From a virus (Duplodnaviria > Caudoviricetes), in IMG/VR virus record IMGVR_UViG_3300033074_000984: a DNA stretch of 64,000 nt; one strand, written 5' to 3'. A model generated the notes under the pieces. The model had not been told where the DNA came from and searched no databases. It worked only from the letters and a program-made list of their open reading frames with translations. Shown piece after piece: positions 40,067-61,256 of this stretch; position 1 is the stretch's first letter, and each line of letters opens with the position of its first letter. Both the position numbers and the translations under genes were made by a program.

Positions 40067-43000
40067 TTGGCACTCGAAATCGACCTCTCGAAGAGTCCCT
40101 ACTACGACGACTACAGCCCAGACAAGCACTTTCATAGGGTGCTCGTCAGGCCGGCAATTCCTGTGCAGGCTAGAGAGCTCACGACGTCCCAGACGATCAT
40201 GCAAGACCAGATCGAACGGTTCGGTCGGCACATCTTCAAGGACGGCTCCATCGTCGAGAAGTGCGAGCTTTACTACGAGCCTGGCCTGCAGTACGTCAAG
40301 CTCGGTGACACGTACGCCAACGGCTACTCGCTAACCGTCGCTGACCTGGTTGGTAAGCAGCTTCGTAGTGACGCTTCCGGCCTTCGAGCGCTCGTGACAG
40401 ACTCTGCACAGGGCGCGACGACCAGCTCTCCAGACCTCAACACCGTCTACATCGACTACCTCAACTCTGGAAACGACTACGTCACTAAGACGTTCGCCGA
40501 GGACGAGGTCCTTACTGTCTACACGACTAGCAACGTAGCCATCGGTCAGGTCTCCACCGCTAACGCCGCTGTGTCGGGCAACAGCGCCTACGTGGGCTAC
40601 GCCTACAAGATGGCAGTGTCGGGCGGAACCGTCTTCCAGAAGGGCTTCTTCATCGGCGTCGAGCCGCAGTCTATCGTCGTCACGAAGTACCACAACCGCC
40701 CTGACAAGCTGTCTGTGGGCTTTCACACCGTAGAGTCTATCGTAACGCCAGAGGAGGACCCGAGCCTCCTTGACAACGCTGCCGGATCTGAGAACTACGG
40801 AGCTCCAGGCGCGCACCGACTTCGCCTCACACCGACCCTGGTCGTTCGCGACACCTCCAACACGACTAACAGCAACACTGAGGTCTTCTTCGCCCTCGCA
40901 GACTTCGTCGAGGGCGCCCCGTCAAGAGCCGCTGGCGTTGACCCGGCCTACGCAGCGCTCGGCGACGAGCTGGCTAAGAGGACTAACGAGGAGTCTGGCG
41001 ACTACATAATCGAGCCGTTCAACATGCGAGCGCTGCCGATATCTGGCAACAACACGCACCTGAAGCTCGAGCTAGACCCTGGCCTGGCCTACATCAAGGG
41101 CTATCGTGTCAAGACCGTTGGCAAGCTGGTCAGCTCGATCAGGAAGTCTGACGACATCAGACAGATAGAGGACCAAGTCGTGTCTGCCACCGTTGGCAGC
41201 TACGTCTACGCGACAGAGTATGCAGGCCTGTTCGACTTTCCGACGATAGCGTCGGTGTCACTCCGAAGCGCCAACGCTCAGGTCGTCACGACCGCTCTAG
41301 CGACTGGAGCCAGCGTTGACAGCGTCTCTGCTCCCGGCTCTGAGATCGGCACGGCGAAGATCATCGGCGCGTATCACGACTCAGGCTCTGTTGGTCTGCC
41401 GAGCACGACCTATCGCATGTACCTCACTGACATCGTCATGGCGCCGAACACGAGCTTCTCGAGCGTTCGGTCTCTGTACAGCGTCTCGGGAGGGGCGAAG
41501 GGCTTCGCAGACCTCGTTCTCGAGTCTAACAACGCGATCCTCAAGGACTCGTCTCTAACCCCACTCATCTACGACCTCGGCACCGATCACACTCGAGCGC
41601 TCATAAGCAGCGCCAACACCATCAACGCGCAGTTCGACTTCCGTACGGCGTCTAACGTCACGTTCGCAGTTGGCGGCACGGCTACGCTTAGCGTGCCCAG
41701 CCACGTAGGCGGCACTAACAAGTTCCCTTACGGCGTAGGCGCGCTAGACTCTACGTCCGAGAACGACTTCATGGTCGTCGTCACGAGCAACGCGGCCACG
41801 GCTAACCTGGCGGGTCGAGTCAGCAACACCAGCGCTAACACTGTTGGGTGGACGATAGGACAGTCGTCAGACTTCACCTCCCAGTACTCTGTTGGCGAGC
41901 ACGTCCTGTTCCTTAACGCTACGGCGTCAGAGGTGGGACGAGTAACCGCGGTTACGAGCTCGAGCATCTCTCTAGCCAACAACCTCACCTACGCCTGGTC
42001 AAACTCGGCGCACGCCAAGTACTACCCTGTCGGCTACACCATACCGTTCAGCTCGAGCTCGGGACGATCTATCACTATAAGCTCTGCGACGAGCGCCTCT
42101 CTGGCCCTCGGTGAGACCTTTACTGGGTCCTTCAACTCCAGGATCTACTACAACGTACGACGAACGAACGCCGTGCCAGCAGCGAAGACCCTTAACACAA
42201 GCGTCTTTGTCAAGATCAACACTGACACCCACACCAACGGGACAACCGGCCCGTGGAGCCTCGGGCTGCCAGACACGTTCCTACTCAAGCACGTCTATGT
42301 CGGCTCTGGCACCTACGCCAACACCAACCCGGACAGGACGTCTCTGTTCTCTGTAGATCCTGGACAAAAGGACACCTACTACGGACTCTCTCGCCTGACC
42401 AAGAGCCCGACGTACGCGCTTCCGGCCAACGCATCACTGCTCGTCGAAGTCATGTGCTTCGCTCCTGACACGTCACAGGGTGTCGGCTACTTCTCCGTGG
42501 ACTCGTTCGACATCGACGACTCCGGTAACAGCAGCTCTAACAGCATCTCGACGCAGTACGTGCCGAGCTACACCTCTGCTAGCTCCGGCAAGAGCTACTC
42601 GTTCCGTGACTCGGTGGACTTCAGACAGTACGCCGTAGCAACCGCGGCGTACGCCGCCAACGCCAGCTCTGCCACCACGAACCCCAACGGCAACAACAGC
42701 CTCTCTGTCACGTCTAGCTTCTTCCCCGTAGTCGACTCCACGTTCGAGTCGGACGTTCAGTACTACCTCGGAAGGAAAGACGTCGTCGGACTGACCCCAG
42801 AGGGCTCTGTCGTGGTCGTCGAGGGCACCCCGTCTGAGAGGCCGATAGAGCCGCACAAGATCTCATCCGGCATCTCGCTCTCATACGTCACGGTTCCGCC
42901 GTACCCGTCGCTCACCTCTACAGAGGCGCGTGACAACCAGTCCGGCGTTGACACGATCCAGTTCACGCCTATCAAGAACCGTCGCTACACCATGAGCGAC

Positions 43001-46000
43001 ATCGGCAAGCTCGACGACCGCATCTCAGTCGTAGAGTACTACACCTCTCTGAGCCTTCTCGAGCAGTCGACTAAGTCGCTACTGCTAGAGTCAGAGACGG
43101 GTGGTGACAGGTTCAAGAACGGCATCATCGCTGACCCGTTTAACGGTCACGACATCGGCAACGTGACCGACCCTGACTATAACATAGCTATGGACTCTGC
43201 GACGTCAGAGGCTCGCCCGATCGTCACGCAGAAGCTCGTACAGATGAAGTACGACTCCGCCACGCCAACTTCGAGCAGCATCTACGTCAGCGACAACGGG
43301 AAGCTCGTGATTCTCGGCTGCGAACGCGTCGAGAACCCGTACCTCTTCCAGATGTACGCCACGCAGCTGCGCAATCCCAGCCAGGACATCGCGTACCGCT
43401 GGGTCGGCACAGTCAACCTGACGCCAGAGGGCGACTACACCCCCGACGTCACGGTCAACCCAGACGTGACTGTCGGTCTCGACTTGTACTCCAACTTCAA
43501 GTACCTCTACGACCGTCTCAACCTCGCTGACGGCGGCATCGGCCAGGGAGCATGGGTGACGCAGTACGGCACGTGGAGAGAGACAGGCACCACGTCGACC
43601 ACCGACACAAGCACGACTCCCGGCAGCACCACGTACAGCCCGCAATACAGCGTTCACGTTGACAGCGTTGGATGGTACTACGTCGATCCAGCTACCGGTC
43701 AGAAGGTGTATGTCGCTGACATCTCCATGGGCCCGAACGCTGGCGGGCTCAACTTCGGTTGGAAGGAGACCGGTGACCAGACCGTTCAGTTCGTCACGAA
43801 GACGGCTGCTAGCACCACCACGACAGTCACCACGAGCGTTGACCAGACGCGAACTGGAATACAGTCAAACGTTCAAGAGAACACTACGACGTACAGTCTC
43901 GGCTCGTACGTAACAGACGTCGCGCTTCAGCCGTTCATCAAGGCCCAGGCGATCTACTTCGGAGCCGTCGGCTTGAAGCCGTCCACCCGCATGTGGATGT
44001 TCTTCGACGACGACGCGATCTCGCAGTACTGCGCACAGCTCACAAACGGCGTGCTCGGCCCGCTGGGCGGACCGTTCGTCACAGACGAGCTCGGGTCTAT
44101 CGAGGGCTGGTTCTTCCTTCCCTCGAGCACCTTCAGGACGGGAGAGCGCAAGTTCCGCATACTTGACATCTCGGACCTCGTCACAGAGACGACAATCTTG
44201 CGCTCGAGCGCAGAGGCCACCTTCTACGGCACGAACCTCTCGTACGCCAAGAACAACATCAACCTCGAGATCAAAGACGCGACGGTCTATCAGAAAGACA
44301 TCCAGGAGTCTCGAACTGTCGTCTCTAGCGTGAGCACGACGACCGGCGGCCAGGTGTCTACGGCCGTCGTGAACTGCAAGTGCTACGGATCGCCGTGCGC
44401 TCAGAGCTTCATAATGCCCGAGGAGAAGCTCGGAGAGAACGACATCTCTGGCGTCTACATCGCGGCCATGGACCTGTTCTTCTCGAAGAAGCACGAGACG
44501 CTAGGCCTCACGGTCATGATCCGTGAGATGGAGAACGGCTACCCGGCGCCTAGGATCCTCCCGTACGGCTCTAAGCACCTGACGTCCGACGACGTCCTGC
44601 TCTCTGACGACGCTACGCTGGCCACCACGGTGGTCTTCGAGGCGCCGGTGTTCCTCGAGAGCAAGAAGGAGTACTGCATAGTCGTCAAGGCCGACGGCTT
44701 CAATCCTGACTACGCCATGTGGACCGCTGCTCTCGGCGGTGATCCCGACGTCACTCTCAACGTGCCCGTCTATCACAACAGCTTCGTAGGAAACTTCTTT
44801 ACGAGCTCGACGGACACCGGCTGGACCGCGTACCAGCAAGAGGACCTGAAGATCGCGATCTATCGACTGACGTTCACCACCCTGGACGCAGTCGCAAGCT
44901 TCGTCAACGAGGACTGGGAGTTCTTGAAGCTTAACAGCCAGCTCGGCACGTTCATGGTTGGCGAGCAGGTGTACTTCGCTAACACCGCCGACTACTCAAA
45001 CGGCGTCTACGTCGAGTCTGGTAACACGACGATCGGCCTCTCAAGCAACGCCGGCTTCTCCGCCAACGACAAGATCTACGTGCTCTCCAACACGAACGTC
45101 TCAGCGTTCGTGGCCAACGTCGTGTCCGTCGGATCAAACACCATCACCGTCAACGCGACGCCTGACTTCTCAGACGCAGACTGCGAGATCGGTCACCTGA
45201 GAAACTCGGGACAGCTGTACGGCAGCCTCTATGAGTGGGTTCCGGTGACGGGCGAGATGACCGTGGCTAACTCGACCGCTACGGGCGCGAGCTACGTCAT
45301 AGCCAACACCCGTGTCATCGGCGCCATGTCTAACGCGAGCGCCAACGTCGCTCTCGTAGACGACCTGCCGTACAACGTGGTGATGCCCAAGCTCGCCACG
45401 AGCGTCCCTCACCAGACGGCGCTGACGTTCTCGTTCAAGGGCTCGTCAAACACCTACGTCTATGACACCGCTGAGACTGCGCTCGAGTTCGCTAACGACA
45501 GAGAGCTTCGAGACTACGAACGCCTAGTCCTGTCGCGCTCGAACGAGCTCGCGGGCTCTTACGGCAAGTCGCTAAGGCTGTACGCTCACTACTACTCGAA
45601 CTCTGAGAAGACGAGCCCGGCCATTGACATGAACAAGTGTGGAATGCACACTGTTCGTAACATAATCAACGCAGACGCAGCTAACAACTACATCCGCGAT
45701 TCTGAGAAGGGAAACGGCGGCTACGCCATCGACAGGTACATCTCTAGGGCGGTCGTCTTGGCTGACGGTCAAGACGCCGAGGACATCAAGATACTTGTCG
45801 CGGCTTACCAGCCGGCGAGCTCCAAGGTGCTCGTCTATGCTCGTATCCAGCACTACGCCGATCCAGACCTGTTCACCGAGAAGCCGTGGACGCTCCTGGA
45901 GACCGGCACCACTCTCGTGTCTAGTCGAGCTAACGCTCAGGACTTCATCGAGTACGAGTACGGCTTCCCGACAGTCGACCCAGGCGACGGCTCTGCGTGG

Positions 46001-46159
46001 TGCAACCCGAGCAACTACGGCATAGTGCAGTACGAGGGTGCAGACGGTCAGGTCTATGAGGGCTACAAGGTCTTCGCTGTAAAGATCGTGCTTCTCTCGA
46101 GCGACTCAGCCGTCGTGCCAAGGCTGCAAGACATGAGGGGCATGGCTCTTCAACAGTGA
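40067..46159 (+). CDS. VrlC-like (DUF4815) large virion structural protein
   Basis: SPYYDDY..KHFHRVL.RP..PVQARELT..Q...Q.QIERFG, APGAHRL, RT.EESGDY, RYTM.DIGKL..RI..VEYY and RFKNG.I.D.F. Confidence 0.88.
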   Translation: MALEIDLSKSPYYDDYSPDKHFHRVLVRPAIPVQARELTTSQTIMQDQIERFGRHIFKDGSIVEKCELYYEPGLQYVKLGDTYANGYSLTVADLVGKQLRSDASGLRALVTDSAQGATTSSPDLNTVYIDYLNSGNDYVTKTFAEDEVLTVYTTSNVAIGQVSTANAAVSGNSAYVGYAYKMAVSGGTVFQKGFFIGVEPQSIVVTKYHNRPDKLSVGFHTVESIVTPEEDPSLLDNAAGSENYGAPGAHRLRLTPTLVVRDTSNTTNSNTEVFFALADFVEGAPSRAAGVDPAYAALGDELAKRTNEESGDYIIEPFNMRALPISGNNTHLKLELDPGLAYIKGYRVKTVGKLVSSIRKSDDIRQIEDQVVSATVGSYVYATEYAGLFDFPTIASVSLRSANAQVVTTALATGASVDSVSAPGSEIGTAKIIGAYHDSGSVGLPSTTYRMYLTDIVMAPNTSFSSVRSLYSVSGGAKGFADLVLESNNAILKDSSLTPLIYDLGTDHTRALISSANTINAQFDFRTASNVTFAVGGTATLSVPSHVGGTNKFPYGVGALDSTSENDFMVVVTSNAATANLAGRVSNTSANTVGWTIGQSSDFTSQYSVGEHVLFLNATASEVGRVTAVTSSSISLANNLTYAWSNSAHAKYYPVGYTIPFSSSSGRSITISSATSASLALGETFTGSFNSRIYYNVRRTNAVPAAKTLNTSVFVKINTDTHTNGTTGPWSLGLPDTFLLKHVYVGSGTYANTNPDRTSLFSVDPGQKDTYYGLSRLTKSPTYALPANASLLVEVMCFAPDTSQGVGYFSVDSFDIDDSGNSSSNSISTQYVPSYTSASSGKSYSFRDSVDFRQYAVATAAYAANASSATTNPNGNNSLSVTSSFFPVVDSTFESDVQYYLGRKDVVGLTPEGSVVVVEGTPSERPIEPHKISSGISLSYVTVPPYPSLTSTEARDNQSGVDTIQFTPIKNRRYTMSDIGKLDDRISVVEYYTSLSLLEQSTKSLLLESETGGDRFKNGIIADPFNGHDIGNVTDPDYNIAMDSATSEARPIVTQKLVQMKYDSATPTSSSIYVSDNGKLVILGCERVENPYLFQMYATQLRNPSQDIAYRWVGTVNLTPEGDYTPDVTVNPDVTVGLDLYSNFKYLYDRLNLADGGIGQGAWVTQYGTWRETGTTSTTDTSTTPGSTTYSPQYSVHVDSVGWYYVDPATGQKVYVADISMGPNAGGLNFGWKETGDQTVQFVTKTAASTTTTVTTSVDQTRTGIQSNVQENTTTYSLGSYVTDVALQPFIKAQAIYFGAVGLKPSTRMWMFFDDDAISQYCAQLTNGVLGPLGGPFVTDELGSIEGWFFLPSSTFRTGERKFRILDISDLVTETTILRSSAEATFYGTNLSYAKNNINLEIKDATVYQKDIQESRTVVSSVSTTTGGQVSTAVVNCKCYGSPCAQSFIMPEEKLGENDISGVYIAAMDLFFSKKHETLGLTVMIREMENGYPAPRILPYGSKHLTSDDVLLSDDATLATTVVFEAPVFLESKKEYCIVVKADGFNPDYAMWTAALGGDPDVTLNVPVYHNSFVGNFFTSSTDTGWTAYQQEDLKIAIYRLTFTTLDAVASFVNEDWEFLKLNSQLGTFMVGEQVYFANTADYSNGVYVESGNTTIGLSSNAGFSANDKIYVLSNTNVSAFVANVVSVGSNTITVNATPDFSDADCEIGHLRNSGQLYGSLYEWVPVTGEMTVANSTATGASYVIANTRVIGAMSNASANVALVDDLPYNVVMPKLATSVPHQTALTFSFKGSSNTYVYDTAETALEFANDRELRDYERLVLSRSNELAGSYGKSLRLYAHYYSNSEKTSPAIDMNKCGMHTVRNIINADAANNYIRDSEKGNGGYAIDRYISRAVVLADGQDAEDIKILVAAYQPASSKVLVYARIQHYADPDLFTEKPWTLLETGTTLVSSRANAQDFIEYEYGFPTVDPGDGSAWCNPSNYGIVQYEGADGQVYEGYKVFAVKIVLLSSDSAVVPRLQDMRGMALQQ

Positions 46160-46204: not shown

Positions 46205-46960
46205 ATGCAAACCAAGTACGGCTTCGTCTACGTCTGGAGAGACAGAAAGCACAAGAGGTACTACGTAGGGTCCCACTGGGGACGGGAGGATGACGGCTAC
46301 GTCTGTAGCTCTCGATGGATGCTAGCCGCAATCAATCGACGTCCGAACGACTTTAAGCGACGCGTGATCAAGCGAGGATTCATCGACAGAGCCGCTCTAT
46401 ATGCAGAAGAGCGTAGATGGCTCTCCATGATCAAGCCTGAAGAGATAAAGCAGGGCTCAAAGAGCCGTTACTATAACCTCAACATAAAGGGCGCTGGTCA
46501 CTGGGTCGCGTTTCCAGACACCAGGAGCATTCGCGAGAAGATCAGCGCTGCTAACAAGGCCTCTCACAAAGGGATGACTCCCTTCTGGGCAATAGAAGCT
46601 AATCGTGGTAGAAAGCACTCCCAGGAGCGCAAAGATCGACAGATCGCTGCCTGGAAAAGCAACCCCGCAAACGTGGAGAGGGCGAGAGCGACTGGTCAAG
46701 CGCGACGCGGATCAAAGGCGTCTCCAGAGAGCATAGAAAAGATGCTAGAAACGAGAAGACGCAACGGCACGCGTAGCGTGATCACTGAAAAAACTAGGGA
46801 GATGTCTAGGACCGTAGAGGCTCTAGCAAAGAGGTCCCTGTCAATGGCTGGAAAGAACACTGGTAAGCGACCAGTCGCAACGTGTCCGCACTGCGGTAAG
46901 ATCGGTGGAGACAACGCCATGCGGCGCTATCACTTCAACAACTGTAGAGAGGCAGCATGA
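46205..46960 (+). mobile_element. Free-standing GIY-YIG (Seg-like) homing endonuclease gene 1
   Basis: GFVYVW...YYVGSH...DDGY..SS, E..WL and YYNL; C-terminal CPHCGK...HFNNC. Confidence 0.88.
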
Positions 46961-47178
46961 ACCTGGTAAAGGTGAGGGACCACCCCGGCCTCGCGCGCGA
47001 CATGAACAGCAAGGCGGTTCTCTCCACTGACGAGAGAGCGCTGCGACAGTACAGGGCTCGTAGGAAGCGAGCCCGCGAGCTCGCCTCAGAGCAGAGAGAG
47101 ACTGCGAAGACTATCGAAGACCTTCGTGCGCAGGTAGAAGAGCTGCGTTCAGCGATGTCTGCCATCCTCGGAAAGTAG
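46957..47178 (+). CDS. Small conserved protein typically following VrlC-like genes
   Basis: KV.DHPGL.RD..SKAVL..D...Y plus a coiled coil. Confidence 0.7.
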   Translation: MNLVKVRDHPGLARDMNSKAVLSTDERALRQYRARRKRARELASEQRETAKTIEDLRAQVEELRSAMSAILGK

Positions 47179-47179
47179 A

Positions 47180-48532
47180 ATGAAGTTTAAGGTGCTAGCA
47201 GTTAAACACGTGCTCGGCAGCCCGAAGCTCGCAGAGTTCACGTACGACAACGACACGTCAGAGCTTCGCGATCGAAACGGCGTGCTCATCGTAGACGACG
47301 CAGCGCGAGCGAAGATCGGATGCGCGTCCTGGGGAGTCGCCGAGGCTACGAGCGAGCAGAGCCCGCTCGGAAAGCTGACGAGAGTGAGAGACCTCAAGAT
47401 CCAGCTCGGGCTCCAGTGCAACTACTCTTGCACGTATTGTAGTCAACGGTTCGTCGAGCGAGCTGAGACCGGCGGCCCGTCTCAGGCAGAGGTCTTCATG
47501 AACAACCTCGACACCTGGCTAGACGGCTCGCCCGAGAAGATAGAGCTCTGGGGCGGCGAGCCGTTCGTCTACTGGAAGACGCTGAGGCCTCTAGGAGAGG
47601 CTCTTCGTGAACGTTTTCCAGACGCACAGATCATGGTGATCACGAACGGCTCTCTCCTCAACGAAGAGATCAATGACTGGATAGAGCGGCTCGGCGTCTG
47701 CGTCGGCGTGAGTCACGACGGCCCAGGACAGCACGTGCGAGGCCCAGACCCGCTCGAGGACCCAGAGAAGAGGCGCTGGGTGATCGACCTGTGGAGACGT
47801 CTGTCTCCCGTCGGTAAGATCTCGTTCAACCCGATGACTAACCGGCTGAACATGGACCGCGGCAAGATCCAGGAGTTCTTTCGCGAGCTCCTCGGCACCG
47901 ACGAGTTCTTGCTCGGAGAGGGAGACTTCATAGACGCATACGACGAGGGCGGCTCGGCGTGCTCTATGCAGAGCCGCGAGGAGCACCTCGGCTTTCGACG
48001 ACTCACCCTCGCGCAGACGAGAGCTGGCCAGAACGACCGACTCGAGATCGTCAATCGCAGGGTCGCTGAGTGGGTCAACTCTATATCCACTCAGCGACCG
48101 TCGTCCTCTCTCTGGCAGAAGTGCGGCATGGATCGACTTGACACGCTGGCCGTAGACCTCAAGGGGAACGTGATCACGTGCCAGAACGTGTCAGCCGCAG
48201 CGGTGGCCCCGAACGGCCGAGGGCACAAGATAGGCCACGTGTCTAGGATGGATCGCGTGGCTCTGAGAACGTCTACTCACTGGAGCGAGCGACCAGGCTG
48301 CCCCACGTGCCCGATGCTGCAGCTCTGCAAGGGCAGCTGCATGTTCCTTGAAGACGAGCTGTTCAAGAGGTCGTGCGACTCCTCTTACTCAGACCACGTG
48401 CCGTTCTTCGCGGTAGCGATCGAGCGGCTGACAGGCTACCTTCCGTTCAGGATAGAGCCGCTCGAGGGCAGTCTTCCAGAAGATCGAGCTGACCTTTGGG
48501 GAAGGCCTGACGAGGAGGGGGTAGTGCCGTGA
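47180..48532 (+). CDS. Radical SAM enzyme with SPASM domain
   Basis: CNYSCTYC, WGGEP, ITNGSLL and VSHDGP; C-terminal CG...VD.KGNV.TC and CPTCP..QLCKGSC. Confidence 0.92.
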   Translation: MKFKVLAVKHVLGSPKLAEFTYDNDTSELRDRNGVLIVDDAARAKIGCASWGVAEATSEQSPLGKLTRVRDLKIQLGLQCNYSCTYCSQRFVERAETGGPSQAEVFMNNLDTWLDGSPEKIELWGGEPFVYWKTLRPLGEALRERFPDAQIMVITNGSLLNEEINDWIERLGVCVGVSHDGPGQHVRGPDPLEDPEKRRWVIDLWRRLSPVGKISFNPMTNRLNMDRGKIQEFFRELLGTDEFLLGEGDFIDAYDEGGSACSMQSREEHLGFRRLTLAQTRAGQNDRLEIVNRRVAEWVNSISTQRPSSSLWQKCGMDRLDTLAVDLKGNVITCQNVSAAAVAPNGRGHKIGHVSRMDRVALRTSTHWSERPGCPTCPMLQLCKGSCMFLEDELFKRSCDSSYSDHVPFFAVAIERLTGYLPFRIEPLEGSLPEDRADLWGRPDEEGVVP

Positions 48533-49311
48533 GCTTCTCAGTGTCAGTGCGTGGAAAAACACTTAAAGACCCGATCAAGCTGTTCCTTACGGACTCGTAT
48601 CCCGAGACGCCCATCTCTGACATCGACAGCGTCTTCGGGTTCCTCATAGAGAGCACGCCGCTCTATGGAGGCAGGAACTACTACGTCAACCCGTGGGTGA
48701 CTAGGAAGCGTGTCCCTGAGCTCTCTGCGAGAGACGTAGAGGCTCTTAAAGAGCTGAAGATCGGGTTACGAGTGCCTCTGACGAGTCTGTTCGTGACCGA
48801 GAAAGAGTACGAGAACAGCGCCCCGTTCTTTGAGAGGCTCAAGACCGTCTACTCGCCCACAGCGCTCGTCGCGCGCGACGAGCTCGCTAGGGCTATACGG
48901 CGCGACTATCCGTGGCTCAAGATCGAGGCGAGCGTGATACGCGACCTCCGAACAGTCAGCTCCATAGAGCGAGCACTCGAGACGTACGACTCCGTAGTTC
49001 CAGCGTTCGAGGCTCACGAGGACCTCGACCTACTTGACAAGCTACCGAGAGACAAGACGCGACTGTTCGCCAACGTCTCGTGCGAGAGAGCCTGTCCCGC
49101 TCGCATATGCTACGCGTACTTCTCAAGAGTTAACAAGAACCCACGCGACGGAGTCGACCTGGGACCGCCATGCTCACAGAGCATCGAGAGGCTCTCTAAA
49201 GCCACCACGCCCACCGGCGGCATGACGCGATACCCGATAGAGAGATACAAAGAGATGGGCTTCGACAAGTTCAAGCTCCTAAGAGAGCGCGTACCCGGAC
49301 AAGCTGCGTGA
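48529..49311 (+). CDS. Peptidase U32-like Fe-S protein (putative)
   Basis: IEASVI, ANVSCERACPARICY, a further Cys, and GFDKFKL; GTGA overlap with the rSAM gene. Confidence 0.55.
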   Translation: MSFSVSVRGKTLKDPIKLFLTDSYPETPISDIDSVFGFLIESTPLYGGRNYYVNPWVTRKRVPELSARDVEALKELKIGLRVPLTSLFVTEKEYENSAPFFERLKTVYSPTALVARDELARAIRRDYPWLKIEASVIRDLRTVSSIERALETYDSVVPAFEAHEDLDLLDKLPRDKTRLFANVSCERACPARICYAYFSRVNKNPRDGVDLGPPCSQSIERLSKATTPTGGMTRYPIERYKEMGFDKFKLLRERVPGQAA

Positions 49312-49317
49312 TAAATA
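49310..49317 (+). promoter_or_regulatory. T4-type late promoter
   Basis: GATAAATA before the fibre gene. Confidence 0.65.
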
Positions 49318-49326
49318 GGCTCGACC

Positions 49327-50103
49327 ATGACGATACAGATATCCAGACTAGCTAATAACCAGACGTTCGGCACACTCACCGAGCGACTAAACCTGCTGTT
49401 GGGCATGCTCTCGAGCAACGTCGTCACGCTCGACCAGGGAGCCTCTGGGGCGGTCAACACCGGTAACGGTCAGGTCAACGGCTACTTTTACTCTACAGTT
49501 CTGAGTGCTGGCACCCTTCGTGGCGGCACCGTCGCGTCACCAAACACCCTTCCCATATCTTCGAACGCGGTGTTCCAGTCATACCTCGGCGCGAACGTGG
49601 CTCAGTTCCTCTCGAACTCTACAGCCACGTGGGTGAACTGCACCCCAACGTCGTTCTACATCAACCCAGCAAGCGTCTTCTCTCTATCCAACGGAGCTTT
49701 CAGGGCGTACGGCAACGGCGAGGTCACCGTCTCTGGCGTCAGCGTCGGCAACAGCAGCGTCAACGTAAGCGTTAACAGCACTTCATTCAGCGGCACTGCC
49801 GCGTACGCGAACAACTCCACATACGCGTACGGCAAGGGAGAGGCCGCTCTAAACGTCAACTCTGCCGCGTACGCGAACAACTCCACATACGCGTACGGCA
49901 AGGGAGAGGCCGCTCTTAACGTCAACAGCGCCGTAACAGCCACCACGGCCAACAACTCCACCTACGCGTACGGCAAGGGAGAGGCCGCTCTAAACGTCAA
50001 CAGCGCCGCGAGCGCTACGAACTCTACAAACGCTAACAACGCGTCATATCTCGGAGGGAGCGCCGTCGGCGACCTGATCGCGATATCGGTAGCCATGGGC
50101 TAG
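49327..50103 (+). CDS. Short fibre/virion protein with internal repeats
   Basis: N-terminal NQTFGTL.ER.N baseplate-attachment-like motif; three NNSTYAYGKGEAALNVNSA repeats; C-terminal IAISVAMG. Confidence 0.65.
   Translation: MTIQISRLANNQTFGTLTERLNLLLGMLSSNVVTLDQGASGAVNTGNGQVNGYFYSTVLSAGTLRGGTVASPNTLPISSNAVFQSYLGANVAQFLSNSTATWVNCTPTSFYINPASVFSLSNGAFRAYGNGEVTVSGVSVGNSSVNVSVNSTSFSGTAAYANNSTYAYGKGEAALNVNSAAYANNSTYAYGKGEAALNVNSAVTATTANNSTYAYGKGEAALNVNSAASATNSTNANNASYLGGSAVGDLIAISVAMG
49796..50007 (+). repeat. Near-identical coding tandem repeat, 3 copies (66-nt period for the first two)
   Basis: AACAACTCCAC(A/C)TACGCGTACGGCAAGGGAGAGGCCGCTCT(A/T)AACGTCAAC at about 49811, 49877 and 49951. Confidence 0.9.
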
Positions 50104-50438: not shown

Positions 50439-51737
50439 ATGCAGATACTGGAGAGCATACGATCTCTGTCCCACTCTTCTGGGACAGCGTCTGTTACCGG
50501 CGCAGTGAGGGCGACGCGCAACCCCACGGGAACGGTCGATCGGCTGCGTCTGCCTTGCAACGGCGCCAACTACTCCCAGTCACAGTACAGCGGTCTCTAT
50601 CAGAAGATTGGTGGTGCGTACTCTAGGTCAACCAACGTCCACGTGAACGGCAAGCCGTGGAAGAATCGCTTTTTAGACATGAATGCTGGAACGAGCACGC
50701 TAGGCAGCTGGACAACAGGCACGAGCCTGCCAGGCGCGTTGAATTACTCTCAGGCTATAGTCACAAAGAGTCGCGTATATCTTCTTGGAGGATATAACGG
50801 CTCTAGCTACATAGCAACCGTCTACACCGCTCCGATCAACTCGGACGGCACGCTTGGCAGCTGGACGACTGGCACCAGCTTGCCAGATAGTATAGGTCGA
50901 TCTCAACCGATCATGACTAAAGATCGTGTATATCTTCTTGGAGGATGGAACAGCTCTATAGTCTCCACGGTCTACACAGCCCCTATAAACTCTGACGGCA
51001 CTCTAGGGACCTGGACGACTGGCACGAGTCTTCCAGCCGGGTGGACCAGCTCTCAAGCTATAGTCACAAATAGTCGCGTATATCTTCTTGGAGGATATAA
51101 CGGCTCTAGCTACACAGCAACCGTCTACACGGCTCCGATCAACTCTGACGGCACTCTGGGCACCTGGACGACTGGCACGAGCGTACCAGATAGTATAGGT
51201 CGATCTCAATCGATCATGACCAAAGATCGCGTCTACCTTCTCGGAGGATATAACGGCTCTCCAGTCTCCACGGTCTATACGGCTCCGATCAACTCAGACG
51301 GTACTCTAGGCACCTGGACGACAGGAACGAGTCTTCCAGGAGCGCTGTGCAACTCCCAAGCTATAGTCACAAATAGTCGCGTATATCTTCTAGGAGGCGA
51401 AAACGGCTCTCCAGTCTCCACGGTCTATACGGCTCCGATCAACTCAGACGGCACTCTGGGCACCTGGACGACTGGTACGAGTCTTCCAGGAGGACTAACT
51501 AGCACTCAAGTCATAGTAACTAACGGCCATGTTTATCTGCTCGGTGGAAATAACGGCTCTGTAACGTCTACTGTCTACACAGCTACTATCTCTAACTTGG
51601 GAGCTAATGACTATCTCACTGGAACCACACTCGAGTGCTACCTGCCAGCCACCGGCGGCTCTGAGTTCGCCGTGCCGCGTTATCCGTACGAGTACACGCT
51701 AGACGGCGGCAGGATGCCGGTCTATATAGACGAGTAG
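50439..51737 (+). CDS. Tail-collar protein with inserted 6-blade Kelch propeller (paralog 1)
   Basis: CNGANYSQ..YSGLY..IG, six VYLLGG blades, then EFAVP. Confidence 0.8.
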   Translation: MQILESIRSLSHSSGTASVTGAVRATRNPTGTVDRLRLPCNGANYSQSQYSGLYQKIGGAYSRSTNVHVNGKPWKNRFLDMNAGTSTLGSWTTGTSLPGALNYSQAIVTKSRVYLLGGYNGSSYIATVYTAPINSDGTLGSWTTGTSLPDSIGRSQPIMTKDRVYLLGGWNSSIVSTVYTAPINSDGTLGTWTTGTSLPAGWTSSQAIVTNSRVYLLGGYNGSSYTATVYTAPINSDGTLGTWTTGTSVPDSIGRSQSIMTKDRVYLLGGYNGSPVSTVYTAPINSDGTLGTWTTGTSLPGALCNSQAIVTNSRVYLLGGENGSPVSTVYTAPINSDGTLGTWTTGTSLPGGLTSTQVIVTNGHVYLLGGNNGSVTSTVYTATISNLGANDYLTGTTLECYLPATGGSEFAVPRYPYEYTLDGGRMPVYIDE

Positions 51738-51742
51738 ACACA

Positions 51743-53038
51743 GTGAGCGACAACGCATTCTACGTGCGATCATCACCAGACAGCACACAAGGAACTGACG
51801 TAGGCGTCGGCTACTACGCGGGAGCGCGCACAGCGCTCCCGACTGGGATAGCGCTGTGCGACGGAGCCAACTACTCTCAAGCGCTCTTTCCTAAGAGCTA
51901 CGCAGCGCTGGGTGATCGGTTCTCGCGTTCGACTAACGTCCACGTAAACGGCAAGCCGTGGAAGAGCAGCCCAACCGCTTCTGGCACAATAACCTCATGG
52001 ACTACGGGTACGAGCCTGCCAGGCGTGCTGAAGGACTCACAGGCCGTAGTCACCAAGAACAGAGTGTACCTTCTTGGCGGGTCTAACGACTCCAGCTACC
52101 TCGCAACCGTCTACACGGCTCCGATCAACTCTGACGGCACTCTAGGGACCTGGACGACTGGCACGAGCTTGCCTGGCAACTTAAAGCAGTCTCAAGCCGT
52201 GATGACGAAGGACCGAGTTCATCTCATGGGAGGTGACAACGGCTCTTCAGTCTCCACGGTCTATACGGCTCCAGTCAACTCAGACGGGACTCTAGGCACC
52301 TGGACGACTGGCACCAGCCTGCCAGCTGCCAAGCACACAGCATCTGCGGTTGTCACGAAGGACCGCGTCTACCTGATGGGTGGAGACAACGGCTCTGGAC
52401 TCGTCTCTAACGTCTACACAGCTCCCGTCAACTCAGACGGCACGCTTGGCAGCTGGAGCACGACGACGAGCCTGCCAGGCGGATTAAGGTTCTCTCAAGC
52501 TGTAGTGAACGGCAACTGGGTATACCTGCTCGGCGGAGGCACGCCCAACGCCGTGTCTACCGTCTATCGAGCCAGGGTCTACGACGACGGCTCGCTCGGA
52601 GCATGGAGCACCGACACCAGCCTCCCTGGCGTGCTGCGCATGAGCCAAGCCGTGGTGGTGAAGAACTACGTGTACCTCCTTGGCGGCTCTATAACTAGCA
52701 CGAGCGTGTCGACTGTGTACATGGCGCAGATCAACGCTGACGGGTCTATAGGCGCCTGGACGACCGGCACGAGCTTGCCAGGAAACCTTGAGGTGTCGCA
52801 AGCAATCATCACTAAGGATCACGTTTACACTCTTGGTGGCTGGAACGGATCTAACACGGTGTCTACGGTCTACGTGGGCGCAGCCTCAGGGGCTGGCCTC
52901 AACGACTACCTCACCGGAACTACGCTCTCATGCTACCTGCCGGCTACTGGCGGCTCTGAGTTCGCAGTGCCGAGACTACCGCTGATAAACGACTCTGGCA
53001 TAGTCCACCTTCTTTATCCCTATGTGAGTCTCAAATGA
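51743..53038 (+). CDS. Tail-collar protein with inserted 6-blade Kelch propeller (paralog 2)
   Basis: PTGIALCDGANYSQ..FP..YAALG, six blades, EFAVPRL. Confidence 0.8.
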   Translation: MSDNAFYVRSSPDSTQGTDVGVGYYAGARTALPTGIALCDGANYSQALFPKSYAALGDRFSRSTNVHVNGKPWKSSPTASGTITSWTTGTSLPGVLKDSQAVVTKNRVYLLGGSNDSSYLATVYTAPINSDGTLGTWTTGTSLPGNLKQSQAVMTKDRVHLMGGDNGSSVSTVYTAPVNSDGTLGTWTTGTSLPAAKHTASAVVTKDRVYLMGGDNGSGLVSNVYTAPVNSDGTLGSWSTTTSLPGGLRFSQAVVNGNWVYLLGGGTPNAVSTVYRARVYDDGSLGAWSTDTSLPGVLRMSQAVVVKNYVYLLGGSITSTSVSTVYMAQINADGSIGAWTTGTSLPGNLEVSQAIITKDHVYTLGGWNGSNTVSTVYVGAASGAGLNDYLTGTTLSCYLPATGGSEFAVPRLPLINDSGIVHLLYPYVSLK

Positions 53039-54345
53039 GCATAGAAAAGATCGGCGCGTTCTCGTCAACGCCTAGTGGAGCTCTAAACCCTGGAGTCGTG
53101 TACTGGTCTTCTACGACGAACGGCGTGCTGTGCGACGGAGCCAACTACGCACAGTCTAGCAAGTCTGGCTTGTACGGAGCTCTCGGCAGCCGATTCACAC
53201 GATCTACAAACATTCACATTAACGGCCACCCGTCAAAGAATCGCTTCCTGGACACTGGTACCGGCTCTGGTGACATAGCCTCATGGAGCACCGGCACCAG
53301 TCTGCCGGTAGCCTCGACACTCTCGCAAGCCTTCGTCACCAAGGACCGAGTCCATCTCATCGTCGGGCATGACGCCTCAGGCGCATCTAGCTCTGTCTAC
53401 ACGGCTCCGATCAACTCAGACGGCACGCTCGGTACGTGGGCCGCCGGAGGAAGCCTTCCAGTAGGCGTCTACAGCTTTAACTCACTGATGACAAAGGACC
53501 GCGTCTACCTTCTCGGAGGCGACACGGGCTCGGTAACCTCTACCGTCTACACAGCTCCAGTCAACTCAGACGGCACGCTCGGTACGTGGACCACTGGCAC
53601 CAGCCTGCCCAGCGCCAGACGAGCTTTTCAAACTGTGGTGACGCATGATCGAGCCTACCTGTTCGGAGGTGACACCGTTCCAAACGGCGTCGTAAACACT
53701 AACGGCGGCGCCAGCTCCACGGTCTACACGGCTCCGATCAACTCTGACGGGACCCTCGGCAGCTGGACGACAGCCGCGTCTCTACCAGAGGGAAGCTACG
53801 GATCGCAGTTCGTGGCGCTGGGCAGCAGAGTGTACATGCTGGGCGGCGCCAACGGAACTGGTGTCATATCTACCGTAAGGTCTGCAGTAATCAACGAAGA
53901 CGGCACGATCGGCACCTGGCAGACAGAGCTGAGCTTGCCGGGTGCGCGACGGTACTCTGCTGCACTCGTGCTGAAGAACAAGATCTATCTCGTAGGCGGC
54001 CACGACGGCACGAACTACTATTCAACCACGTATTACGCTACGCTGAACAGCGACGGCTCTATAGGCTCGTGGTCTAGCGGCATCAGCATTCCAGCAGCCA
54101 GGATGTCCTCGCAAGTGATAGCCACGAAGGACCACGTATACGTCCTCGGCGGCTACAACGGCGGCTACCTGTCGGACGTCTACTACGCTAGCGTCTCTGG
54201 TGTTGGAACGAACGATTGCCTAACTGGAACCACCCTCGAGTGCTACCTGCCAGCCACCAGCGGCTCTGAGTTCGCAGTGCCGCGACTGGCGCCAAGAACC
54301 AACTTCTATTCTGGAACTCGAGAGTATCCCCTAATTACGTCGTAG
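53035..54345 (+). CDS. Tail-collar protein with inserted 6-blade Kelch propeller (paralog 3)
   Basis: LCDGANYAQ...GLYGALG, six blades, EFAVPRL. Confidence 0.8.
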   Translation: MSIEKIGAFSSTPSGALNPGVVYWSSTTNGVLCDGANYAQSSKSGLYGALGSRFTRSTNIHINGHPSKNRFLDTGTGSGDIASWSTGTSLPVASTLSQAFVTKDRVHLIVGHDASGASSSVYTAPINSDGTLGTWAAGGSLPVGVYSFNSLMTKDRVYLLGGDTGSVTSTVYTAPVNSDGTLGTWTTGTSLPSARRAFQTVVTHDRAYLFGGDTVPNGVVNTNGGASSTVYTAPINSDGTLGSWTTAASLPEGSYGSQFVALGSRVYMLGGANGTGVISTVRSAVINEDGTIGTWQTELSLPGARRYSAALVLKNKIYLVGGHDGTNYYSTTYYATLNSDGSIGSWSSGISIPAARMSSQVIATKDHVYVLGGYNGGYLSDVYYASVSGVGTNDCLTGTTLECYLPATSGSEFAVPRLAPRTNFYSGTREYPLITS

Positions 54346-60376: not shown

Positions 60377-60422
60377 CTGACATACTTTGTATATATATAC
60401 CTCATCAGCTGATGGAGGTACT

Positions 60423-61256
60423 ATGTCGGGGTTTGTCTATATCTGGCGCGATCGAAAGCATGCGCGCTACTACATTGGTTCCCACTGGGGCGATGAAGAC
60501 GACGGTTACGTCTGTAGCTCCAAGTGGATGATGCAAGCATATAAACGTCGTCCCCAAGACTTTAAGCGAAAGATTCTAGCTAGAATCGATTTGTCCCGTA
60601 AAGATCTTTTAGTAGAAGAAGCACGATGGCTCTCTATGATAAAGCCACAGGAGATCAAGAAACGCTACTACAACATCAACATAGGAAAAATTGGACATTG
60701 GATAGCGTCGGTCTCCAGCGAAAACGTATCCGAGACGATCAGTGCACGCACTAAAGCAGCCATGGCTCGCCCCGAAGTTCGTGCACGCTATGAAGCAGGG
60801 TTAGCGAAGCGTAATAATCACTCAAGTGACCCAAAAGTCAGAGCTAAGCGTTCCGCCTCCATGAAGGCTACTATGGCCGCCAAGTATGGAGAGCTTCGAG
60901 CCGCCAAGGCCCTTCTGCCTAGCGGGCCAGCATTCGGGTCTGAGGAGTACAGAGCAGCGCTGTCTGAGTCTTGCAAGCTCGCATGGAAAGACCCTTCTAG
61001 GTTGGAAAAGTCATCTTCCAAGCTTCGAGGCAGACGCTGGTGGAATGACGGCACTAAGAACACCTTCCAGGTAGAAACGCCTGGTATAGGATGGCGTTCT
61101 GGACGACTCTCGAGCTACAAGCCCACCAGGGAGCACGTCGAGAAGATCGCAACATCCAACAGGAGACAGAAGCGCTCAGCGACAGCCAAGATGAAGATGG
61201 GCATGTCCGCAAAGTGTCGCGCTAATAAATATACAGAAACACCTTCTCTATTATAG
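60423..61256 (+). mobile_element. Free-standing GIY-YIG homing endonuclease gene 2
   Basis: GFVYIWRD...YYIGSHWG.EDDGY, YYNIN and RWWNDG; lower GC; GGAGG RBS. Confidence 0.88.
61224..61231 (+). promoter_or_regulatory. T4-type late promoter
   Basis: AATAAATA upstream of the 61264 ORF. Confidence 0.55.

Follow-up and report, generated by a model that had tools for sequence, protein, structure and literature searches.

Among characterised radical S-adenosylmethionine (rSAM) enzymes, QhpD and PapB join Cys to Asp or Glu through thioethers, in the case of QhpD on a protein subunit; the two belong to the QhpD/QhpC system of quinohemoprotein amine dehydrogenase maturation and the PapB/PapA system of the ranthipeptide freyrasin, respectively. 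Asn and Asp are ranthionine acceptor residues, as with PapB, NxxcB and QhpD. CrpC of Methanococcus voltae is an rSAM enzyme that installs thioethers (ranthionine) on a whole Cys-rich protein, CrpA (Dieter et al. 2026, PMC13692751). Members of the U32 family carry 4Fe-4S clusters and have been connected with hydroxylation that depends on prephenate but not on O2 (PMC6747719, PMC10990095); the known substrates of UbiU/UbiV, TrhP and RlhA are quinone precursors and RNA bases, never proteins. Here we analysed a coupled gene pair, encoding an rSAM/SPASM enzyme and a protein with a U32-like fold, in a 64,000-nucleotide stretch of phage DNA (the window), which corresponds to bases 65131-129130, minus strand, of a 161-kb IMG/VR phage record (IMGVR_UViG_3300033074_000984; ~95% complete).

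The pair lies in the tail module of this T4-like phage. Comparison with related loci suggests that the rSAM/SPASM enzyme is a virion-protein maturase, of a family that would act on short alternating-Cys runs, usually starting with Asn-Cys, in tail-fibre and baseplate proteins. Its target here would most likely be NCKCY (amino acids (aa) 1436-1440), in a linker of the giant DUF4815 protein, whose gene lies a short way upstream. The reaction would probably be radical thioether formation, joining the sulfur of a Cys to a carbon atom of a nearby residue in the same chain or in another one, and the thioether would covalently stiffen this joint of the giant protein. The U32-fold protein probably binds an iron-sulfur (Fe-S) cluster through four invariant Cys and may carry out an accessory reaction on that substrate, for which O2-independent hydroxylation is the most plausible candidate. 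As a whole, this reading (an rSAM maturase on NCKCY, a probable thioether and a U32-fold accessory step) has in our judgement about an even chance of being right. The genes and the motif concerned are:

40067-46159, plus strand: giant DUF4815 tail/baseplate protein, 2030 aa (Pfam DUF4815, E 1.9e-47; phrog_358, E 0); candidate rSAM substrate
44372-44386, plus strand: NCKCY motif, aa 1436-1440 of the giant protein; two-Cys form of the Asn-Cys ladder
46205-46960, plus strand: GIY-YIG-type homing endonuclease (phrog_314, E 4.8e-18)
46957-47178, plus strand: small Cys-free virion protein, 73 aa (phrog_473, E 4.8e-12)
47180-48532, plus strand: radical SAM/SPASM enzyme, 450 aa (PF04055, TIGR04085, phrog_1802)
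48529-49311, plus strand: predicted U32-fold TIM-barrel protein, 260 aa, with four invariant Cys (fold searches with a predicted model)
49327-50103, plus strand: fibre protein with three YAYG repeats, 258 aa; syntenic neighbour, unsupported as substrate

A preliminary description had read the pair as an intact CxxxCxxC-plus-SPASM enzyme of the peptide- or protein-modifying kind, translationally coupled to a U32-like gene with a Cys motif, embedded in the late tail cluster directly before a fibre gene with three repeats. All of this anatomy held up. The plus-strand structural gene block spans 26-64 kb of the window; baseplate wedge proteins (phrog_219, phrog_17744 and phrog_438) are encoded upstream of the pair, and downstream of it come the 258-aa fibre, a 106-aa open reading frame (ORF) and three collar/Kelch fibre paralogs.

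The rSAM enzyme carries the cluster motif CNYSCTYC at residues 80-87 (C80, C84 and C87). It belongs to the radical SAM superfamily (Pfam PF04055, 35.6 bits against a cut-off of 29.5) and to the SPASM proteins (TIGR04085, 30.5 bits against a cut-off of 27, residues 315-391). Its architecture comprises a small N-terminal beta-sheet domain (aa 1-65), the rSAM core and a SPASM domain with seven Cys (C315, C334, C374, C377, C383, C387 and C399); these seven and the three rSAM Cys were all invariant among 22 homologs. In SPASM enzymes such a seven-Cys domain serves two auxiliary 4Fe-4S clusters. None of the named maturase equivalogs was reached: the scores were 51.7 bits against a cut-off of 453 for QhpD (TIGR03906), 48.7 against 340 for PapB (NF047865), 23.5 against 349 for the anaerobic sulfatase-maturating enzyme (anSME; TIGR03942) and 27.2 against 425 for SCIFF (TIGR03974). 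The QhpD and PapB models (E 5.3e-14 and 6.3e-13) were the best NCBIfam matches apart from the viperin model, which scored between them, and all three covered the rSAM core only. The NCxC motif and the virion context also set this locus apart from the QhpD and PapB systems. TIGR04463, the CrpC family, was not among the matches listed (25 of 42 NCBIfam rows). By sequence, the nearest solved relatives were TigE, CteB and anSME. An AlphaFold2 (AF2) model of the enzyme (predicted local distance difference test (pLDDT) score 88.5) matched CteB best, with ChlB, anSME, SkfB and SuiB also at the top; these structural matches are peptide- or protein-modifying SPASM enzymes, several of them thioether-forming.

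Like the phage enzyme, CrpC combines an rSAM core with a seven-Cys SPASM domain and a recognition domain at the N-terminus, and it modifies a whole protein rather than a short peptide, as is proposed here. By contrast, the CrpC/CrpA system is archaeal and cellular, CrpA is a stand-alone Cys-rich protein of 29 kDa with no assigned role, and no U32-like partner has been reported for it. The candidate site in the phage consists of two Cys within a 2030-aa virion protein, and the relation between the two enzymes is established at the superfamily level only.

The window's enzyme is a member of a large, highly conserved phage family found in myovirus and siphovirus tail-fibre modules. It matched phrog_1802 (E 2.6e-55) and more than 2332 homologs, the best 120 of which shared 50-63% identity; in IMG/VR, 582 of 599 candidate stretches were confirmed as loci of the family. 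A quick tree grouped it with the enzymes of the related loci L004, L005 and L017 (Shimodaira-Hasegawa-like approximate likelihood ratio test (SH-aLRT) 95). Homologs also lie in the fibre modules of the myovirus RSP15 (48% identity) and of the Achromobacter phages JWF and 2-1 (43-47% identity), the central-fibre gene set of JWF being of the siphovirus type. Neighbourhood analysis gave a very strong link between the rSAM family and tail proteins, in keeping with the virion-protein context proposed in the preliminary description. About 4 kb downstream of the pair in L004 (L004:12810-16786; IMGVR_UViG_3300027902_000155) we observed a second, shorter rSAM-SPASM gene (335 aa), flanked by glycosyltransferase and methyltransferase genes, which may represent a separate glycan or virion modification set.

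To survey the proteins encoded near this enzyme, we called ORFs and clustered proteins in 85 rSAM-bearing loci. A run of at least three alternating Cys (a ladder) was present in a protein in 61/85 loci, upstream of the rSAM gene on the same strand in all but three, and typically a few genes away. The typical run, YNFNCNCNCNCDCYC, ends a fibre of ~300 aa at its very C-terminus; elsewhere a Hint domain follows directly, as in JWF gp028. The census of upstream motifs covered the 61 of the 85 loci in which 5 kb or more of sequence precedes the rSAM gene. The first pass found ladders in 50 of these. Its ORF caller had favoured antisense frames, and a six-frame rescan of the eleven exceptions recovered ladders in six; the other five, representing four distinct phages, have a two-Cys NCxC. 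An Asn-Cys motif of some kind (a ladder such as NCNCNCDC, or NCxC) was thus present in 61/61 loci, with an overall tally of 55 for ladders and six for the two-Cys NCxC. Most ladders contain 4-7 Cys. The residue ahead of the first Cys is Asn in 40 of 47 distinct ladders, and the 220 spacer residues include N 88, A 50 and D 45 times. The RSP15 side tail fibre, ORF048, terminates in NTNCQCGN, and the clade of the window carries NC[KDQ]CY.

Among the closest cassettes are JWF gp028-gp030 and RSP15 ORF045-048, which share with the window an orthologous rSAM enzyme (47-48% identity), a place in a fibre module and an upstream, same-strand tail protein with N-C-x-C. Their genes are annotated only as hypothetical or as "anaerobic sulfatase-maturating enzyme". 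Ladder cassettes elsewhere mostly have 4-7 Cys, which either end a ~300-aa fibre or come right ahead of a self-cleaving Hint domain, and their helpers are a ~270-aa protein with an immunoglobulin (Ig)-like region and a 2-oxoglutarate (2OG)-oxygenase-like protein. In the window, by contrast, a minimal motif sits within a giant protein, neither helper is encoded and the cassette has a U32-fold gene instead. Our literature search turned up no publication on rSAM enzymes encoded in phage fibre modules or on the pairing of ladder and enzyme; a cyanophage paper that names an rSAM maturase treats the gene as an antibiotic gene.

Several features of the ladder loci were recorded alongside. An intein-like Hint domain stands right after the ladder (ladder, then CFPAGT...) in L003:4676-6127 (JWF gp028), L012, L019, L033, L042, L080 and L081, and its self-cleavage would leave the ladder as the C-terminus of the mature fibre. 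A gene for a ~200-aa 2OG-Fe(II)-oxygenase-like protein lies beside the rSAM gene in 50/85 loci (L082:7346-7963, L089:7114-7779, L043:1862-2536 and 47 others). These proteins match PF13759 weakly, fall into two sequence clusters joined by hhalign with a probability of 98%, and are rare in the myovirus branch. The ~270-aa protein, whose Ig-like region is its C-terminus, is additionally encoded in 44 loci.

The giant DUF4815 gene follows the baseplate wedge genes, and its homologs are named virion structural protein or adsorption-associated tail protein. NCKCY is the sole NCxC in any real gene of the 161-kb genome, and no real gene of the window or of the whole genome has a run of at least three alternating Cys. 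The locus has a phrog_1802 ortholog in a tail module but lacks the ladder at or near the C-terminus of an upstream fibre-type protein; its motif has two Cys and is internal to the giant protein, in a linker that leads directly into the conserved SPCAQSF motif. In the alignment of giant proteins the Asn-Cys motif occupies a single column, where its forms extend from NCKCY up to a run of seven Cys, NCDCDCACDCACAC, in P0291. At this column, NCKCY aligns with full ladders in P0288 and P0290-P0293 and with NC[QD]CY in three relatives, and L017 has the ladder DCNCDCACACAC followed by a Gly-rich stretch. A Tyr closes the short motif in all four phages with such a mini-ladder.

Presence of the motif coincided with presence of the enzyme. 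The rSAM gene comes right after the small virion gene in 8/8 contigs with a motif-bearing giant protein (the window, L004, L005, L017, L096, L097, the contig of P0290, and L101), and in 0/3 contigs with a motif-less one (P0286, P0294 and P0296). By our arithmetic, this corresponds to a Fisher P of ~0.006, for relatives that are not independent and without correction for relatedness. P0286 lacks the motif although it shares 66% identity with the window protein over the searched region and is closer to it than the L004 protein; it is therefore nested among motif-bearing relatives and has lost the motif. On its contig, a fibre gene stands directly after the small gene and no rSAM gene is present, and the more distant P0294 and P0296 show the same arrangement. 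The giant protein of the close relative L098 (L098:5001-12986) has lost both NCxC and the Cys of SPCAQSF, reading DPAAQSW, and there is no rSAM gene in the usual slot; L098 is a natural double-loss control. As judged from these alignments, the co-variation of motif and rSAM gene is the strongest evidence suggesting that the enzyme acts on NCKCY. Close relatives gain or lose the motif and the enzyme together, which makes a clean natural experiment.

A classical ribosomally synthesised and post-translationally modified peptide (RiPP) system would have a separate short precursor, with leader and core, beside the maturase. No such gene was found here. The preliminary description had seen no small precursor, and this stands in that the sole small ORF (46957-47178) encodes the phrog_473 virion protein; a small ORF does, however, adjoin the rSAM gene, stopping 1 nucleotide (nt) ahead of its start. 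The 73-aa product is Cys-free and follows the giant gene with or without an rSAM gene. It is a syntenic companion of the giant gene and not a precursor peptide.

The second gene of the pair is joined to the first by a GTGA overlap, in which the rSAM stop codon TGA (48530-48532) overlaps the GTG start (48529), with AGGAGGG ~8 nt upstream. An overlap of 4-8 nt with the rSAM gene is kept in three phages (the window, L004 and L005) that are 50-55% identical. The 260-aa product matched nothing in Pfam (hmmscan, E up to 0.01), PHROG or NCBIfam; the PF01136 hidden Markov model (HMM), run over all six frames of the genome, gave zero matches even with E allowed up to 10; tblastn against 50,697 phage records gave no match; and a profile of the family found nothing useful among PDB sequences, so that only fold searches were informative. 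An AF2 model built with 11 homologs (pLDDT 82.6) had the U32 protein Mk0906 (5d88) as its best Foldseek match, with E 1.8e-7 and template modelling (TM) scores of 0.61/0.64 (next match, E 7.7e-4). VIA-align against 48,161 chains also ranked 5d88 first (Z 16.0 over 217 residues; runner-up Z 10.5), and an Atlas search gave a match at TM 0.76 to a cluster in which 26% of members carry PF01136. The predicted model thus points to a U32 TIM-barrel fold in a protein that the PF01136 HMM does not recognise as a family member. Four Cys (C185, C189, C194 and C215), spaced CX3CX4CX20C in the C-terminal third of the barrel and coming after a strand ending in Gly/Ser-Cys, are invariant among 32 diverse homologs. 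The TIM-barrel fold and the four invariant Cys recall UbiU/UbiV, TrhP and RlhA; the window's family differs from the U32 Fe-S proteins in having no PF01136 match, another Cys spacing and a link to sulfotransferases.

An exhaustive profile search yielded 973 U32-like representatives at E up to 1e-3, of which 156 reached E up to 1e-30. Many members are fused, in both orders, to Sulfotransfer_1, _2 or _3, others to tetratricopeptide repeats (TPR) or DUF4915, and one stand-alone member sits among TPR-sulfotransferase genes. Examples of the fusion type are P0150, P0154, P0170, P0184, P0185, P0224, P0242, P0164 and P0140, with sulfotransferase domains of the type that uses 3'-phosphoadenosine 5'-phosphosulfate (PAPS). 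A locus search with a narrow U32-like alignment added just two new viral loci. Among the 85 rSAM loci, the U32-like gene occurs in three distinct ones (the window, L004 and L005; L009 is the same contig as L004), all with the short motif. The converse, that the short motif always comes with a U32-like gene, was rejected, as L096 has NCDCY and no U32-like gene. The four relatives with full ladders have none either. Pairing with a U32-like gene is not general across the rSAM family. BLASTP showed no similarity between the U32-like protein and the products of the rSAM-flanking genes of RSP15 and JWF, which are therefore not hidden U32-like homologs. A bacterial contig (L094:8001-16789) carries a U32-like gene followed by a 466-aa rSAM gene and genes for a thioesterase, an enoyl-CoA hydratase, a ketoacyl synthase (KAS) and a 3-hydroxyacyl-CoA dehydrogenase; its rSAM enzyme is unrelated to that of the window and was rejected as an ortholog.

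Hydroxylation by the U32-fold protein is a tentative assignment, which we regard as possible but doubtful. It would explain the sulfotransferase fusions, because a hydroxylase would supply the OH group for sulfation, and it would parallel the 2OG-oxygenase-like genes of other rSAM loci; that the U32-like gene replaces this helper is speculative. We consider it unlikely that the U32-fold protein is instead independent of the rSAM enzyme and belongs to a sulfation-linked pathway of fibre or glycan decoration, merely inserted at this place in this clade. Such independence would fit the repeated fusions to Sulfotransfer_1, _2 and _3, the rarity of the gene among the rSAM loci, and the phage loci L092 and L095, where the order is fibre-like protein, sulfotransferase, U32-like protein and no rSAM gene was seen in the stretches read. 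It accords poorly with the gene overlap conserved in three phages, and no sulfotransferase was found in this genome.

Thioether formation on NCKCY is favoured over other chemistry because the Asn/Asp-rich spacers of the ladders fit ranthionine acceptors and because the closest characterised relatives (CteB, PapB, QhpD and CrpC) form thioethers. Several points weigh against the proposed scheme. All of its support comes from sequence comparison and predicted structures, and anSME-type Cys oxidation, other cross-links or metal-site formation fit the same data. A two-Cys motif could arise by chance, with ~0.2 NCxC expected per proteome of this size by our arithmetic, and the weight of NCKCY rests on its alignment position and on co-variation among related, non-independent phages. 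The L098 contig stops 2.4 kb beyond the giant gene, leaving room for an rSAM gene further downstream. As for the second enzyme, PF01136 is silent, and the spacing CX3CX4CX20C differs from the CX6CX15CX3/4C of U32 proteins (PMC6747719, PMC10990095). Its gene is missing from five other rSAM-bearing clade members, including L096 with its short motif, and its family is mainly tied to sulfotransferases, none of which is present in this genome.

Another use of the same Cys would be as a metal or Fe-S site of a trimeric tail protein, with the rSAM enzyme carrying out a different Cys reaction, such as anSME-like formylglycine formation or metal loading, and no thioether being formed. Alternate residues of a beta strand point to one face, an arrangement found in the His-x-His iron sites of T4 fibres, and anSME is among the best sequence and structure matches of the enzyme. 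CrpA, too, is suspected of binding metals (PMC13692751). The spacers, however, are mainly Asn, Asp and Ala, and the top matches CteB, PapB and QhpD make thioethers; we judge this alternative improbable. That the pair acts on a non-protein substrate (a nucleotide, a cofactor, a lipid or a host surface glycan) and occupies the tail module incidentally seems to us very unlikely. The unusual conservation of the rSAM family, with many invariant residues, and the bacterial contig with a U32-like homolog beside an unrelated rSAM gene and fatty-acid-type genes could be cited for it, but the enzyme occurs in fibre modules of unrelated phage types, an Asn-Cys motif accompanies it in every locus with sufficient upstream sequence, and motif and rSAM gene co-vary within one clade.

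The substrate proposed in the preliminary description was the downstream fibre (49327-50103), with its Tyr-Ala-Tyr repeats as a multi-copy core for aromatic cross-links or hydroxylation by the two enzymes. The gene has a 66-bp unit in 3.2 copies (85% match), encodes three YAYGKGEAALNVNSA units and begins only 15 nt after the pair; characterised U32 enzymes act on aromatic rings, and cyclophane-forming rSAM models are among the weak NCBIfam matches of the enzyme. Comparison with relatives did not support this proposal. An orthologous fibre adjoins the pair in L004 and L005 and the rSAM gene in L017, where the U32-like gene is missing; these three fibres resemble that of the window over the N-terminal ~100 aa only and contain no YAYG. 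L098 has the same fibre type (36% identity, E 4e-16) right after its small virion gene, with neither enzyme in the 2.4 kb to the contig end. Direct homologs of the fibre protein P0003 never bear a ladder, the motif that tracks the rSAM gene, and in L033 and L080 a homologous fibre is followed by a separate ladder-plus-Hint protein. The repeat itself looks like a modified form of ANNxxYLGG, a common fibre repeat that occurs in L004. From these comparisons, the fibre appears to be a syntenic neighbour and its repeat a lineage-specific variant of ordinary fibre repeats, and its role as the core seems highly improbable. Neighbourhood analysis, put forward as a check of this idea, tied the rSAM family to structural genes, but the correlate was the Asn-Cys motif and not the YAYG repeat. 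The modification-system interpretation is thus kept as a virion-protein cassette, with a substrate other than the YAYG fibre.

The system is likely one more form of rSAM-SPASM maturation directed at proteins, unusual in that its target would be minimal and internal and that a U32-fold protein would act as accessory enzyme. The target motif can apparently shrink to two Cys inside a giant baseplate-associated protein, and being minimal and internal it would be missed by searches for Cys-rich tails. If maturation of this kind occurs, tailed phages would rebuild their host-binding proteins covalently by radical chemistry, beyond folding and cleaving them, and such remodelling would fall outside current models of virion assembly and fibre engineering. 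The recruitable, unannotated U32-fold family may have a role in modifying proteins; until now this fold has been associated solely with the hydroxylation of quinones and RNA. In a more specific version, the rSAM enzyme would cross-link the NCKCY joint, and the U32-fold protein, as a member of a new family, would afterwards add a hydroxyl group to a protein residue without using O2, perhaps to the Tyr at the end of the motif. We consider this version quite unlikely; if true, it would provide the first protein-directed U32 enzyme, and the sulfotransferase-fused homologs would feed hydroxylation-then-sulfation of fibres and bacterial surface proteins.

The remaining features of the region concern neighbouring genes. 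The three collar/Kelch genes (50439-54345) are tandem paralogs of 431-436 aa, each with a phage tail collar motif and Kelch repeats. The homing endonuclease gene sits between the giant DUF4815 gene and the small virion gene, a slot that is empty in the relatives L004, L005 and L096-L101, and a second phrog_314 gene is located at 60387-61256 in the window.

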